Source of the DNA: Escherichia phage anhysbys
Direction: 5' to 3' (one strand)
DNA: 64,000 bases
Sequence record: NC_052656.1
Program-made: the position numbers and the translations under genes
In this document: positions 42,923 through 56,681 of the stretch, in pieces
Position numbering within the stretch: position 1 is the stretch's first letter
Layout of the letters: the number at the start of each line of letters is the position of its first letter
The notes under the pieces: model-generated
What the model was told of the DNA's origin: nothing
Databases searched by the model: none
What the model saw: the letters and a program-made list of their open reading frames with translations, nothing else

Positions 42923-42976
42923 TATTTTAACTTTTTTCATTTTTAGAACAAAGGCGTCACTTTGTAGCACAGAAAT

Positions 42977-43011
42977 AAGGCTCCTACAGCACCGTAGAGA
43001 GCCTATTATTT
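42977..43011 (+). terminator. Terminator after the NADAR gene
   Basis: aggctcctac...gtagagagcct stem then attattttg. Confidence 0.45.
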
Positions 43012-43162
43012 TGTCCTATACAAACCCTTGTCTTTTTCAGTTTGCATCACTAGGATTCGATCTGAGTGGGTTCCTGAAGGTCTGCCAATAAGATTAAAGG
43101 TTATCTCAAATTCCCATTACCTATTATCTCAAAAATCCCTCAAATTATTTAAACTTTTTAAG

Positions 43163-43350
43163 AATTTACAAAAGTGAAAGTTGAAAACCAAAATTTAAAG
43201 TTTAGGAAAATTATCTTAAAATGTTAGATACAAAACAAAACTCAAAAGTCAAGGAAAATTTTAAAAATTTTGCGCGCCCACAGTATTTAAAGTTTTTTTG
43301 CTTTTACAAAAATGAAAGTACAAAAGCAAAATTTAAAGTTTACAAAAATT
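43163..43350. repeat. AT-rich direct repeats (about 45 bp, two full copies plus one partial)
   Basis: ttacaaaagtgaaagttgaaaaccaaaatttaaagtttaggaaaatt vs ttacaaaaatgaaagtacaaaagcaaaatttaaagtttacaaaaatt. Confidence 0.6.
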
Positions 43351-43390
43351 TATGCAGATGGGGATGAGAAGAGTTCTCATGTGGAAATGC

Positions 43391-43469
43391 AAATGATAAT
43401 GATTCGCATTTAGGTTTATAAATGAGAATGATTCTTATTTAATAAAGTAAATGATAATCATTCTCATTT
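43391..43469. promoter_or_regulatory. Three Fur-box-like palindromes at 29-bp spacing
   Basis: aaatgataatgattcgcattt / aaatgagaatgattcttattt / aaatgataatcattctcattt; core AATGATAATCATT identical to the Fur box consensus GATAATGATAATCATTATC. Confidence 0.45.
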
Positions 43470-43727
43470 AGAGAATGACGCGCAGGGGCGGTGTTTGTCT
43501 CGCGCTCCCGTGTCCCCTCGCCATGTAATAAGAATAACAGATCCAACCAGGAAAGCAAGCGATTATTTTATCTTTACATTTCTTTACGAATATATAGCGC
43601 CCAGCCTACCGGCGATCAACCTTCCAACCAGTGCCCCTGGTATGTTAGCCCCGCCTTTACGCCGTGGGGTGGCGCTTCCTCTTCTGTATGTAAAACAGTA
43701 TAAGCCCTATCCCTGGGCTTGTCAAGA

Positions 43728-43994
43728 TTATTTTTTGTTTTCTTGCCAGGTCAGGACACCTAGCCAAAAATGAATATCACCTTTTCCCCAATGTGGTATA
43801 TTGCTTTCTTTCCCACCTTCACGCGCCCAGGTAAAACCGCCCGTGTAACTTTGTAATTGATAACTATCCTCGACCTTATAATCTGATAGGTTGAGAACGG
43901 TTTCAACCTTTAAGCCCGTTGCGCTTGCTACCTGGTGTACCGTGCCGCCTTGCCAGCCCAATGAGTGCATAAGGTGTAATGTAGTAGTTGTCAT
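43728..43994 (-). CDS. Hypothetical protein, isolated minus-strand gene in GC-richer segment
   Basis: 88-aa ORF. Confidence 0.35.
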   Translation of the reverse strand: MTTTTLHLMHSLGWQGGTVHQVASATGLKVETVLNLSDYKVEDSYQLQSYTGGFTWAREGGKESNIPHWGKGDIHFWLGVLTWQENKK

Positions 43995-52810: not shown

Positions 52811-53095
52811 ATGAAAAAGATGATCGCAGTAGTTGCCCTGGTTGTTGGTATTAACGCGCCTGTAATGGCGAAAGAGTTGCCAGAATCCATCACGTTAACC
52901 GATATTAACGCAGTGAATCGGATCGGTGTTAATTATCGCCTATGCCTTGCCGCTAAAACTTTCCAGGACGGCACAACAGAGTACTACGGATTCGAGGGTA
53001 TCCGCTGCGGTGAGCTTTCACGCGACCTTAAGGAAGATCCAGACCTTGAGGCCATACCGATGACCGTAAACGGTAAAGCCCACGTAAACCGCTAA
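52811..53095 (+). CDS. Secreted small protein
   Basis: Signal peptide MKKMIAVVALVVGINAPVMA. Confidence 0.5.
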   Translation: MKKMIAVVALVVGINAPVMAKELPESITLTDINAVNRIGVNYRLCLAAKTFQDGTTEYYGFEGIRCGELSRDLKEDPDLEAIPMTVNGKAHVNR

Positions 53096-53097
53096 CC

Positions 53098-53232
53098 ATG
53101 AGAAAGGTAATCATCACAATGGGGATCGTAGTAGCAACGCTGGCGCTTATCCCTTTCATGGTTGAATATGTGCTGATTAATGTTGTCCTGGTAGTCAGTG
53201 ACCTATTGGAAACGGTTGGCACCTGGTTTTAA
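53098..53232 (+). CDS. Small membrane peptide (44 aa)
   Basis: Hydrophobic; followed by weak terminator. Confidence 0.35.
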   Translation: MRKVIITMGIVVATLALIPFMVEYVLINVVLVVSDLLETVGTWF

Positions 53233-53406
53233 GATAATAAATAGGGCTTGCAATAGTCCTATTTTTTGTTATACTTATTGAACGGGCGGCACCTGGGAGC
53301 AGGGGAAGATAATCACCGGAAGACCCCGCTATATATTGATAACTAACGCCTATCAAACAACAAAACATCAAAGGAACAAACTATCAAATCTTTACAATTC
53401 TACCTA

Positions 53407-53467
53407 TTGACACCGGATCACGCTTACATTATTATTTATCACGTAGGGCGAGCAATACAGCAAGCCC
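53407..53467 (+). promoter_or_regulatory. Promoter-stem-loop cassette (degenerate hairpin)
   Basis: TTGACA-17-TATTAT, then gtagggcgagcaatacagcaagccc. Confidence 0.45.
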
Positions 53468-53484
53468 ACAAAGAGGAAAAGAAG

Positions 53485-53853
53485 ATGAGCAAATCAGCAA
53501 TTAAAGCAGTTGAAAAAGCGCAAGAAGTGATCGCAACGTCTACCACTGGCGCAAAGGTTAATCTGATCGGTTATCTGACAGATGAAACTATCCGTAAAAA
53601 TTGGCGTAATGCTGATTTACTGGCTTGCTTATTGATTAATAGTGTCGCTAATGCTTTCCAGTGTGAAACAGCCGAGAGCCTGGAGGAAAACTTGTTTGAT
53701 AATATGGATCAAGCCATTGAAACCTATATACAATCAAACCTGGATAGCTGGAACAGTAAAACATGGCCAGACAGTTTACGCGATACAACTGATCAACTGA
53801 TCCGCCTTGCCGTGATGGTTGAACGCGATAACGTTTACAACAGCACAAAGTAA
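53485..53853 (+). CDS. Hypothetical protein (last array gene)
   Basis: 122-aa ORF with RBS aagaggaaaagaag. Confidence 0.5.
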   Translation: MSKSAIKAVEKAQEVIATSTTGAKVNLIGYLTDETIRKNWRNADLLACLLINSVANAFQCETAESLEENLFDNMDQAIETYIQSNLDSWNSKTWPDSLRDTTDQLIRLAVMVERDNVYNSTK

Positions 53854-53864
53854 GATTATACAAG

Positions 53865-53890
53865 GGGCGCACCAAGCGCCCTTTCTTTTT
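53865..53890 (+). terminator. Rho-independent terminator closing the array
   Basis: gggcgc-accaa-gcgccc then tttcttttt. Confidence 0.7.
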
Positions 53891-54923
53891 GCCCGAACAA
53901 TGTTGATAGCTTTCGCCTATGAAAAACCGACACAGAACAAAATTGAATAAATCGCGGTATCGAGCTAATCAACCATTAAACGAATAACCATACCTCCCAG
54001 GGTAACAGGCTGTTAGAGAGCCATTTATAGCGGTTAAAATCGATCAACAACCAACAACAAACCATCAAAAACACCCTTTTACCTCCTTTCTAGTGCAATG
54101 ATAACCATTATCATCTACCCATGATTATCTATGCAATATAAGCGCATAATTATAATGTTGATAATAGTTCGCAACAACTAACCAACAAACAACATAAAAC
54201 AAGAAGCAAACTAATCATAATCAAAGGAATAATAGCAAGATGATTGATAACGACAAACAATCAAACCATGATGAATACTAAGCAAGATAACGATAACACG
54301 ACAAAACAACCAACTAACGAACAATAACAAACGAAACCATTAAAATAATAACTATTGCCATAATAGTGACTGAATGAAATCATTACAAAACGAATCATTC
54401 CCAGGATCATCATTAGCACGCTATGCCGGACACATAGCGAGCTAATAATAAGCCAACTACACCCCAACAATCATAACCATCGGTGATGGTTATTTCTTGT
54501 TACTGCGTAGCTTGCAATAATTGCAAGCGTAATTACGCTTACACTTATTGCGCTGGCTTATTATTAGCATTATATGTAATTACCAAGATCATAACATTAA
54601 CGCAATAACAATAATCATTGTAATGGTTACAATATGAAATCATTGGCAAGATGAATAATTGCACGTAGCAACATGAGCGAATAGCGACAGGTTGCATAGT
54701 GTGCACATAATAGAATAAAAGTCAATAATTTTGGGGGCGAAATGTTACCGCCACAGGCGGGAATGTTGAGCACTAAGAAAAGAGATAAACCTTAATCATG
54801 GGGGCGTAAATATCCGCAGGATTGCCAACGGCGATCCGGTAGGATGTTGAGCATCTTCTCTTAAACGTAAATAAAATCAGAAAATTCTTGATTTATTTTA
54901 GTTTTTATGTTAATAAACGTTTA

Positions 54924-54943
54924 AATAATAATCATTCTCATAT
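54924..54943. promoter_or_regulatory. Fur-box-like palindrome
   Basis: aataataatcattctcatat. Confidence 0.35.
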
Positions 54944-55101
54944 GAATAATAGTCTGCTTGTCATGAGCGGGATTAGTTGACATTGTTCCGTCATATGATG
55001 AGGTTGCCAACCTATTGATAAATAAGTGTTTGTGTGATTTATAATCAAGTGGCCCACCTTGTCGCTATGTTGGCATGAGCCTTGCATAAGTCATTGAATA
55101 C

Positions 55102-55122
55102 GAATGATAATTATTCTCATTC
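55102..55122. promoter_or_regulatory. Fur-box-like near-perfect palindrome
   Basis: gaatgataattattctcattc. Confidence 0.4.
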
Positions 55123-55462
55123 GCATGATATTTGGGAATTGTCGCTGCGTGGACCTGACGGCCCGAAAATTCGCGTTAAGCACTTCTTACGTATGCGCCA
55201 TGATTTTTGCCATATGATATTGATTCTATTAGATATTCTTGCCATGATTGCCATGAAACAGGGTGTCCCGAAATAATCTCTCCCCGTAGATATTTTGGGT
55301 TACTTTTTATACAAGAGTGGGGTGTCAAAAATAATCGATATATATGGGATAATTGATAGGAATCCCCTATGGTAATTCGATTGTAATTGCCGAAGATTGA
55401 TCGTATGATGTTGGTGATTGATGATTGCCATGAAAGATGGCTAACGATGAGAGGAGATTGTC

Positions 55463-55807
55463 ATGCAAGAGAGTAAAAATGTTCCGTTAAGTAGTTTACG
55501 TCTAATGAAGTTTTACAAAGCTTGGCTTGCTGGTGAGGTAGAAGGTCACACAACGAGTGGTTTGTGCATATGTTTGATTAAGTATGTGGAGGGAACATAT
55601 CCTGATGAACTGTTACCTCGTCTACAACAAGAGATGAAATCCCAGTTTATTGGTGCAGGACTAGATTACAATTTTCCGTTTAATGAAGGTGGTTATGAGG
55701 AATACACCTTCGAACATAAAAAACATATTTGCCATAAAAACAAACATCGTATACAATGGGTGTTAGATAGAATTCAGGATTATGAAGGAGAGAAAAATGA
55801 CAAATAA
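55463..55807 (+). CDS. Hypothetical protein, paralog family A member 1
   Basis: FYKAWL...TSGLCICL...QF..AGLDYNFPFNE...RIQWVLDRI. Confidence 0.5.
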   Translation: MQESKNVPLSSLRLMKFYKAWLAGEVEGHTTSGLCICLIKYVEGTYPDELLPRLQQEMKSQFIGAGLDYNFPFNEGGYEEYTFEHKKHICHKNKHRIQWVLDRIQDYEGEKNDK

Positions 55808-56165
55808 TATTCCGTTGAGCAGTGCAGCATTGCTTCGCTTCTACAAAGCATGGATTGCCAACTATCCTGCAATGAATCGCACAACGAGTGGCTTATGTGG
55901 TTGTCTGGTAGATTATGTAGATGATTTTGTTGGTGAGACAACTAGAGAAGAAGATAGAAGATGGCGGGATAGTTTGTTAGACCGTTTGAAATATGAAATG
56001 AGGAAACAATTTACATGTGCAGGGCTGGACTACAATCTTCCGTTCAATGCAGATTGCATGGATTACCTTTCAGAGTGTATAAACTTGGCGTGTCATACCA
56101 ACACGTTACGTCTTCAATGGGTGAAAGATCGCATTGAAGATGCAAATAATGCTTGCATTGAATAA
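55797..56165 (+). CDS. Hypothetical protein, paralog family A member 2
   Basis: FYKAWI...TSGLCGCL...QFTCAGLDYNLPFN...RLQWVKDRI. Confidence 0.5.
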   Translation: MTNNIPLSSAALLRFYKAWIANYPAMNRTTSGLCGCLVDYVDDFVGETTREEDRRWRDSLLDRLKYEMRKQFTCAGLDYNLPFNADCMDYLSECINLACHTNTLRLQWVKDRIEDANNACIE

Positions 56166-56223
56166 AAATGTCTGTATAGTGGTTTGCATACCGCGCATAA
56201 CAAATAGCCAATGAGGAGATGAA

Positions 56224-56445
56224 ATGAAGAATTTGAAAACTGTCACAATGTTCTTGACTGATCCTACACGTGTGCAAGCACTGGCTAAAGCCAGCCGTGT
56301 AGCTGTAGAATTCCAAAACTTTAAGCCGTCCGTTGTGACAGGCAGTGAAACGTGTGTTATCGATTTCATTAACGAATACTTCCGAGGGAATCCGGTTAGT
56401 CGTTACTTCATTAAAAACTTGAAGGATGTGGAGCAGGTACAATGA
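56224..56445 (+). CDS. Hypothetical small protein
   Basis: 73-aa ORF with RBS. Confidence 0.4.
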   Translation: MKNLKTVTMFLTDPTRVQALAKASRVAVEFQNFKPSVVTGSETCVIDFINEYFRGNPVSRYFIKNLKDVEQVQ

Positions 56446-56681
56446 TCCTTCCAGTAGATAATGAGATAGCTATGAATGTTCTGGATACAGAATACTTCTA
56501 CAATCACTACTCTGAGACAGAGTGGATGAACACGCAAACTCTAAAAGAGAAGACGCAAGCTTTGATTAAGTGTGATCGCTACTTGCAACGTGCCGAGGAA
56601 GATAATATAACATTAGCATCTCGCGCACGACGCGTTTCCATTTTCAATAAAATGTTAGCATTATGGGGAGGTAGAAAATGA
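56442..56681 (+). CDS. Hypothetical small protein
   Basis: 79-aa ORF. Confidence 0.4.
   Translation: MILPVDNEIAMNVLDTEYFYNHYSETEWMNTQTLKEKTQALIKCDRYLQRAEEDNITLASRARRVSIFNKMLALWGGRK

Follow-up and report, generated by a model that had tools for sequence, protein, structure and literature searches.

A probable genome terminus with a 329-bp direct terminal repeat in the 1.6-kb gene-free gap of Escherichia phage anhysbys

What might a phage keep in some 1.6 kb of DNA that appears to encode no protein? The question is raised by positions 53891–55462 of a 64,000-nt stretch of Escherichia phage anhysbys (NC_052656.1; the whole stretch is called the window here), for which a preliminary description, made from the letters alone, had offered a long non-coding or sponge RNA, a replication origin or a packaging site as candidates. 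Comparison with relatives favors the last of these, as the region contains genome termini and a direct terminal repeat (DTR). We put at roughly 0.87 the probability that the gap forms the terminal part of a linear Phapecoctavirus genome, seen in junction (circularized or concatemeric) form, with a DTR of 329 bp. It then falls into three parts: a non-coding right arm (53891–54849), one copy of the DTR (54850–55178) and a left-end leader (55179–55462).

The gap itself is genuine, as the preliminary description had said. From 53876 to 55462 (1,587 bp) neither strand holds an open reading frame (ORF) of at least 70 aa, which makes this the longest such stretch in the window, ahead of a runner-up of 800 bp. 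The largest ORFs inside it measure 69 aa (minus strand), 64 aa (plus strand) and 53 aa (minus strand), all three interrupted in relatives, and there is one more of 32 aa with a perfect Shine–Dalgarno sequence. Annotators of phAPEC8, Schickermooser, DE16 and the phiWec phages left the equivalent gap empty. A search with 53800–55500 matched 76 phage records at 81–98% identity, nearly all from Phapecoctavirus, the phAPEC8-like myoviruses of about 150 kb in the subfamily Stephanstirmvirinae; judged by these matches, the source of the window is a phAPEC8-like Phapecoctavirus myovirus.

Record ends in these relatives locate the terminus to the base. The record of Schickermooser (MK373788) begins and ends with the same 329 bp, an exact repeat that corresponds to 54850–55178 of the window, and the paper on this phage reported a terminal repeat of 328 bp. 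When 54850–55178 alone served as query, 69 records were found, 63 of them at ≥95% identity. More than ten records from several laboratories begin at the first or end at the last base of the repeat (BI-EHEC, Schickermooser, WPEC1/2/4/6, Mt1B1_P17, Ro121lw and 3A1/10C3/118_SA_NWU), several with a copy at both ends, and many GenBank records of relatives begin or end somewhere inside the gap. The sister genus Justusliebigvirus has a homologous repeat: phi92 carries an annotated right terminal repeat, PHI92_DTR-R, of 343 bp, which starts after GTTG (AGCC...) and ends in CGCGTTA. Published PhageTerm analyses of BME3 and FKP3 gave repeats of 342 and 317 bp, respectively, DTRs are described as the ends of Stephanstirmvirinae genomes in a 2025 paper, and PhageTerm assigns a related Vequintavirinae phage to the ‘T7 type’. 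Probes taken at the beginning, in the middle and at the end of the repeat were each found once in the window, which is why we read it as the junction form, with right arm, one repeat copy and left arm in succession. By homology at 95–99% identity, the locus shows what is expected of a short DTR, namely the same sequence at both ends, fixed nucleotide positions and one copy at the junction.

The two boundaries resemble each other, and both are conserved islands in the five lineages that we compared (Phapecoctavirus, phiWec/PsgM04F, Justusliebigvirus, KP13-26-like phages and one metagenomic lineage), in surroundings that are ~60–70% identical or unalignable; the repeat interior, too, is only ~60–70% identical between lineages. 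The predicted left cut site, GTTG^AGCATCTTCTCTT (54846–54862, plus strand), is placed between 54849 and 54850 by record ends, by phi92 and by PHB05, whose record ends in ..TTGTTG. The predicted right cut site, CGCGTTA^AGCACTTCTTACG (55175–55190, plus strand), is placed between 55178 and 55179 by record ends and phi92. With more of their surroundings, the boundaries in the window read ATGTTG^AGCATCTTCTCTTAAACG on the left and TTCGCGTTA^AGCACTTCTTACG on the right; in phi92, DTR-R begins GTTG^AGCC and the record ends in ..AAAATCGCGTTA. Both sites share the motif GTTR^AGCA(C/T)(C/T)TyCT in direct orientation and agree at seven of nine bases around the cut (P ~1e-3 by our own binomial estimate). 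The distance between the motifs is ~330–353 bp in 10 of the 11 loci measured and 412 bp in the other (L015), possibly reckoned from another left copy.

Further signals lie 5′ of each cut. Around the right cut, the five lineages align without a gap from −70 to +30, and ~45–50 nt 5′ of the cut a palindrome is joined to TGATATTTGrG, which is TGATATTTGGG in the window. A TTTGsGGGG box lies 5′ of the left cut at a variable distance, accompanied by additional ‘decoy’ copies of TGTTGAGCA. Here the right arm ends in a hypervariable spacer with indels (54576–54849) that includes a 67-bp tandem duplication (units from 54726 and 54793; span 54726–54859), each unit with a GGGGGCG box, a GC hairpin and ATGTTGAGCA. 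In an alignment of seven sequences the duplication is peculiar to the window, and the six relatives have one unit. It yields a second cut-like site, the decoy GTTGAGCA at 54765, which is apparently unused. KP13-26 and two further loci (L028 and L018) have extra copies of their own.

From this arrangement we propose that the terminase would cut concatemers at two related, directly oriented sites, 54849/54850 and 55178/55179, reading the cut motif together with the upstream A/T-rich–TTTGGGG box that lies ~45–50 nt 5′ of the right cut. The sequence between the cuts would be duplicated during processing, as in T7-type phages, and two site-specific cuts would therefore leave every packaged chromosome with the 329 bp at both ends. 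On the same scheme, 53891–54849 would be the non-coding tail of the right arm, and 55179–55462 the leader of the first left-end early genes. The protein that would read the motif and box, and the manner in which the repeat would be duplicated, are steps that we infer. A family-A DNA polymerase and a gp4-like primase-helicase, both encoded in the window, point to T7-style replication and count in favor of the scheme.

Several points weigh against this reading. The boundaries are carried over from relatives that are 95–99% identical and not taken from reads of this phage, and some records, such as ESCO13, ESCO5 and DE16, are linearized elsewhere in the gap. Agreement among record ends could also partly reflect re-orientation to a reference rather than independent mapping. 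A terminus directly covers only ~350 bp plus the cut sites, and ~700 bp of right arm with conserved patches is left unexplained. Finally, a hairpin just 5′ of the left cut, tried as a universal feature, is present in Phapecoctavirus and absent from phi92-like phages, with z-scores that are mostly insignificant; we do not count it in the mechanism because of that absence. What sequence comparison establishes is a set of end positions in close relatives and a sister genus, a cut motif shared by the two sites, a single junction copy and no conserved ORFs.

The right arm keeps several features across genera, namely a terminator, short patches, an operator-like cluster, a poverty in G and a folded element at 54405–54575. 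The patches fall in the non-coding block at 53891–54093 and include ATGATAGCTTT..CCTAT and, at 53941–53960, GTGAATArATCGCGgTAT. The left, A+C block as a whole is 92–98% identical to the phiWec phages, and that identity runs on over two upstream genes, which argues for a shared mosaic module instead of a special constraint; we therefore rejected ‘extreme constraint’ on it.

Operators could account for part of the gap. The Fur-box-like sites noted in the preliminary description are indeed enriched: eight matches of at least 13/19 to GATAATGATAATCATTATC, the published Fur consensus, occur in 1.57 kb, compared with 0.97 in shuffles. The best are at 54094 (15/19), 54921 (14/19) and 55100/55106 (14–15/19), the 7-1-7 Fur dyad TGATAATnATTATCA is matched at 12–13/14 at 54099, 54926 and 55105, and relatives reach 16–17/19 to the classical consensus at the same positions. 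In the right arm, the operator-like cluster (54094–54168) consists of the Fur-like TGATAACCATTATCA at 54099–54113, a palindrome TATGC..GCATA at 54130–54148 and a weaker box at 54145–54163, with a leftward sigma-70-like promoter between the boxes (TTATCA-18-TATATT, 9/12, 54164–54135). This arrangement is kept in Justusliebigvirus (arall) and KP13-26, and the boxes flank the promoter-like site in lineages A to C. Inside the DTR, the Fur-like palindrome TAATAATCATTCTCA (54921–54940) is a conserved island in the otherwise divergent interior in the phiWec/PsgM04F lineage and arall; its KP13-26 equivalent is not conserved. A further palindrome, TGATAATTATTCTCA, is the one joined to TGATATTTGGG 5′ of the right cut (55100–55136).

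It is possible, if on balance improbable, that the region is mainly a host-Fur (iron) switch, in which iron-loaded Fur on these palindromes would gate promoters in the right arm and repeat and so tie early transcription or packaging to iron. The numbers of matches, the stronger sites in relatives and the flanked leftward promoter favor such a switch, as does the finding that the boxes are conserved islands in three genera and recur in a Certrevirus-like contig. However, in the phage consensus TGAkAATnATTCTCA the right half-site (ATTCTCA in most copies) is regularly at odds with the Fur dyad, no box clearly covers a strong −35/−10 pair, and those within the repeat coincide with no good promoter. 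The box near the right cut lies at much the same distance from it in all lineages, which is a better fit to a role in packaging, and three further copies stand in another non-coding region, at 43390–43470. Given the departing half-site and the similar distance to the right cut in all lineages, candidates for the binder include a phage regulator and the small terminase subunit besides host Fur. Within the terminal region that we favor, the palindromes would be putative operators of host Fur or a phage regulator.

The other region with such sites, 42923–43730, is a second ORF-poor stretch, 3′ of a gene annotated as GTP cyclohydrolase II in relatives. It has tandem Fur-like palindromes of the form AAATGAtAATsATTCkCATTTAG at 43390, 43423 and 43449, a GC-rich and probably structured part at 43470–43690, and repeats of ~60 nt upstream at 43100–43340. 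It is 98% conserved, occurs in 142 records and has no Rfam match.

The most conserved part of the right arm is a multi-hairpin element of ~165 nt at 54405–54575, which we folded with RNAalifold from an alignment of 16 distinct sequences covering the five lineages. A first hairpin, H1 (54419–54425/54433–54439), has a 7-bp stem and a conserved loop, CCGGACA; directly after it begins a long-range stem of 15 bp (54441–54455/54554–54568) that encloses H2 (54473–54481/54485–54493), which is followed by a T-rich tail, and H3 (54510–54517/54521–54528). A fourth pairing within the element, H4 (GCGTAAT/ATTGCGC), is visible by eye. The unpaired CAACTACAC is invariant in all 16 sequences. Palindromes had been noticed here before; they are real, at positions about 5 nt from those first given, with cttgcaataattgcaag at 54511–54527 and gcgtaattacgc at 54527–54538.

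Covariation backs this fold. The 39 predicted pairs have 98.9% of their cells paired, and 13 of them are altered on both sides, compared with 7.1 ± 1.1 in shuffles (none of 500 reached the observed count) and 1–3 in slid controls. Scored for covariation, the pairs reach 0.229, whereas shuffles give 0.075 (again 0/500 as high) and slid partners at most 0.042. Folding z-scores relative to shuffles are −7.5 for plus-strand RNA, −9.8 for minus-strand RNA and −8.3 for DNA, and the covariation supports a conserved fold equally well as RNA or as single-stranded DNA. The arms of the long stem are ~100 nt apart and cannot be extruded from a duplex, and the fold therefore implies a single strand, of one kind or the other.

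The element is also widespread among relatives. With KP13-26 as query, it was matched in every one of the 131 related records, which was true of no other part of the gap. Scans for the H3 pattern found 4 loci in IMG/VR and 12 in metagenomes, of which 5 of the 12 are without flanking element motifs and are taken as chance. We found no homologues of the element in plasmids or Escherichia coli genomes. Rfam 15 gave no match at gathering score anywhere in the window and, at 53000–56500, only snoRNA matches at chance level (E > 0.07).

We tentatively favor, at somewhat less than even odds, a cis-acting single-strand DNA fold for end replication or repeat regeneration; the element lies 210–450 bp inside the right end. 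An action as RNA is a weaker candidate, and the share that remains goes to palindromes bound by protein.

A more specific version of the RNA proposal, which is compatible with a genome terminus, holds that the core is a plus-strand gene for a structured small or medium non-coding RNA starting at ~54390. H1 would be its 5′ stem-loop, the unpaired and invariant CAACUACAC its seed, and H2 with the U-rich tail its terminator, with a longer read-through form closed by the 15-bp long-range stem. We regard this as doubtful. In its favor, besides the strong covariation, the very low z-scores and the invariant CAACTACAC, all five lineages have a sigma-70-like site with a start 36–51 nt 5′ of the long stem's 5′ arm, three of them with an extended −10 TG, and H2 with its T-rich tail was flagged as terminator-like. 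However, the promoter matches reach only 8–9/12, in AT-rich DNA where such matches are common, and H2 has only three GC pairs and a tail that is not U-rich in lineage E. Because the long stem covaries, the folded molecule must also reach past the putative H2 terminator. Read on the plus strand, the 624 cells contain no G-U pair at all, and the seven non-standard cells are all A.C or C.A, which is unusual for a plus-strand RNA. Those seven would be G.U on the minus strand, and H4 in lineage A has T.G on the plus strand; counted as independent wobble events, about four favor the minus strand and one the plus strand, which is not decisive. Long perfect stems with loops of 3–4 nt are more like DNA hairpins, and no Rfam family matches the element. 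A literature search found no transcriptome studies of these phages. A non-coding RNA is possible, then, but it would lie at 54390–54575 and be suggested by covariation, not by the AAN tracts on which the idea had first been based.

Relatives show variations on the element. In the Klebsiella phage KP13-26 (L012, 2770–2900), the element is followed by GGTATTATTAGC, the 3′ arm of its long stem, in three direct copies that could be taken for iterons or for alternative partners in pairing. A Certrevirus-like IMG/VR contig (L037, 4150–5560), to which a homologue of the last right-arm gene led, shows a similar arrangement in a different sequence: a CCGGA-tip GC hairpin, then a 17-bp long-range stem that encloses a T-run hairpin and whose 3′ arm abuts TTTGTTG^AGGC. 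In this one lineage, the arrangement points to a link between fold and terminus. Certrevirus phages (CR3, CR8, CR9, phiTE and others) have an equivalent gap of 1.2–1.4 kb with many Fur-like palindromes, an analogous fold and TTGATATTTGGG, and the PBES 02 record (L040/L041) is linearized exactly at the center of the TTGATATTTGGG palindrome. The pseudo-ToxI RNA locus of phiTE is unrelated, as it sits elsewhere in that genome (106.7 kb).

Drawing fold and palindromes together, one may speculate that 54405–54575 represents an undescribed class of cis-acting folded nucleic acid, with a CCGGA-tip hairpin and, after it, a long-range stem around two or three further hairpins, in rV5-like myoviruses of two subfamilies. 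As single-stranded DNA or RNA, it would be needed to regenerate or process short terminal repeats, and host Fur, or a phage mimic of Fur specificity, would be recruited to the repeat and tie packaging or early transcription to iron. We think it more prudent to doubt this combined proposal than to adopt it.

A replication origin in the right arm is unlikely. The tract at 54170–54400 would serve as the unwinding element, and palindromes and ATTAGC repeats would bind an initiator or prime a single strand. Secondary origins of T7 lie near genome ends, the poverty in G on one strand is kept across genera without sequence conservation (6–14% G), the adjacent fold requires single-strandedness, and the three copies of the long stem's 3′ arm in KP13-26 are iteron-like. 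Against this, those copies are confined to the KP13-26 lineage, and DnaA and IHF sites are not enriched, with one DnaA-like box (8/9, one mismatch) and one IHF core in the region. A periodic repeat of 128 bp formed by CAAC-rich 19-mers was tried and rejected, as its three units are 34–40% identical (z 0.8–1.6) and give no autocorrelation peak. The cumulative GC skew, proposed earlier as a check, turns only once in the window, at ~37 kb, where gene orientation changes, and does not switch at 54–55 kb. Beyond the AT-rich, G-poor tract there is no positive evidence for an origin.

A sponge in the form of a long A/C-rich non-coding RNA, bound to the distal face of Hfq by its (AAN)n tracts, can be set aside as highly improbable. 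The tract at 54170–54400 is A-rich and G-poor on the plus strand (54% A, 10.5% G), the window's A-richest 200-nt windows (54% A) lie at 54131–54400, and the AAN string quoted in the preliminary description does exist at 54172–54211; its runs, however, do not exceed composition. Six (ARN)n runs of at least three triplets occur, against 5.85 in shuffles, and the longest has five triplets (P = 0.29). The sequence of the tract is not kept across genera: in arall and the other phi92-like phages, and in KP13-26 and its kin, it is A+T-rich, unalignable and free of AAN periodicity. Moreover, the upstream gene is closed by a strong terminator and no convincing promoter follows. The A+C skew described for the whole region holds for its left third (53891–54414: A 0.44, C 0.22, G 0.12, T 0.22) and not for 53891–55462 overall (A 0.35, C 0.18, G 0.18, T 0.28).

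Equally improbable are small protein genes hidden in the gap. One candidate, the 32-aa minus-strand ORF at 53976–54074 behind AAGGAGGT, starts with GTG after a perfect Shine–Dalgarno sequence in both the window and phAPEC8, and some automatic annotations place 3 to 11 tiny ORFs here; we rejected them because this ORF is cut by a stop in five of seven relatives and has lost its start in the phiWec phages and because the ORFs of 69, 64 and 53 aa are broken as well. The 32-aa ORF is hydrophobic and lies 3′ of the promoter-like site with Fur-like boxes on either side; only the window and phAPEC8 have it intact, and five relatives shorten it to 17 aa or lose its start codon.

The surroundings of the gap contain further signals. 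An intrinsic terminator at 53862–53884 on the plus strand (9-bp stem with six GC pairs, then a T run) closes the last right-arm gene (53485–53853); it is kept in all lineages, sister genera included, and its equivalent is annotated in the phAPEC8 and Schickermooser records. Between that gene and the terminator, at 53854–53861, the window is without the 420-bp gene phAPEC8_0017 (an rV5-like hypothetical protein), which many relatives have at the right end, a presence/absence polymorphism. On the other side, the left-end leader (55179–55462, plus strand) precedes the first early gene, with an ATG at 55463 and the ribosome-binding site GAGAGGAG. It has a promoter-like TTGCCA-18-AATAAT at 55248–55277, a conserved block GGGGTGTCAAAAATAAT..TATATATGGGATAATTGATAGG at ~55319–55361 and direct repeats ATGATTGCCATGAAA at 55244 and 55421. 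The first two genes 3′ of the repeat (55463–55807 and 55797–56165) are paralogues that overlap by 11 nt and both match phrog_2510, of unassigned function.

Early promoters (window 53407–53455; L001 1300–1356) share the pattern TTGACA-N17-TAtTAT-ttayCACGTAGGGCG, which the phAPEC8 record labels as host-type and ‘PHIRE’ promoters; the conserved CACGTAGGGCG directly 3′ of the −10 is without explanation. Around the gap, the plus strand carries many small genes of unassigned function. Genes for the family-A DNA polymerase, which stands with a T7 gp4-like primase-helicase, NrdD and a UvrD-type helicase, are on the minus strand, and no tRNA genes were found in the 64 kb. Some records that are 82–97% identical to the window here are labeled as Campylobacter phage B15/A110a/C3, Acinetobacter phage ABPW7 and Pseudomonas phage PsgM04F, and, on this identity, their host labels look doubtful.

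Set beside known systems, the closest counterpart is the homologous locus of phi92, Schickermooser, BME3 and FKP3, where small right-arm genes, a terminator, a gap of 1.5–2 kb and small early genes follow each other in the same way. Repeats in that group measure 317–343 bp, against 329 bp here, and the boundary motif is the same (left, GTTG^AGC.; right, CGCGTTA^AGCAC). In the published accounts of these repeats we found their length only, and no description of a cut motif, multi-hairpin element or Fur-like boxes.

The T7/T3 junction (a repeat of 160–230 bp with pac sites and a hairpin intermediate) likewise has a short exact repeat that must be duplicated as concatemers are processed, and a DNA hairpin containing the repeat was reported as a processing intermediate in T7 infection (Chung and Hinkle 1990, as cited in a later paper). 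Both T7/T3 and this phage have non-coding flanks rich in repeats and palindromes and encode a T7-type polymerase and primase-helicase. Unlike T7, this phage is a myovirus of 150 kb. No phage RNA polymerase was found in the window, there is no sequence similarity to T7, and the predicted terminase cleavage sites are direct repeats of one motif. To our knowledge, direct-repeat cut sites have not been described for T7.

The injection-stop-signal region of T5 is another kilobase-scale ORF-free terminus with direct and inverted repeats and palindromes; it lies inside a terminal repeat of ~10 kb, has DnaA boxes and is tied to two-step DNA injection. The present gap shares that scale and wealth of repeats and palindromes, but its repeat is 329 bp and DnaA boxes are not enriched. 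The multi-hairpin element recalls single-stranded DNA hairpin signals such as the minus-strand origins of filamentous phages, primosome assembly sites and the N4 hairpin promoters, in that it has several long perfect stems of Watson–Crick pairs only, with loops of 3–4 nt, that form only when the strand is unpaired. It differs from them in having no sequence similarity or plasmid match and in belonging to a double-stranded DNA myovirus. Compared with the enterobacterial Fur box, the putative sites here are similarly palindromic, clustered and conserved, at 14–15/19; unlike a typical box, they have, in most copies, the ATTCTCA right half, and they lie in the terminal repeat of a virulent phage, beside a predicted terminase cut site.

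The core feature of the gap is an ordinary one of a known kind, as phi92 has an annotated homologous repeat and Schickermooser a reported one; as far as could be found, there is no earlier description of the conserved cut motif, of the multi-hairpin element with its covariation or of the Fur-like operators. If the gap is the chromosome end, records of these coliphages can be oriented at GTTR^AGCA. The coliphages concerned are widely used in therapy, and their gap is better left free of the tiny ORF calls that several records put there. For a large group of myoviruses in which packaging and early regulation are unstudied, the comparison defines candidate cis elements: two directly repeated cut sites and the box 5′ of the right one, Fur-like operators in the repeat, and a covarying element that is the subfamily's most conserved non-coding sequence. 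Should the fold or the Fur-like sites prove functional, they would be relevant to the questions of how phages outside the T7 group duplicate short terminal repeats and whether virulent phages read the iron status of their host.

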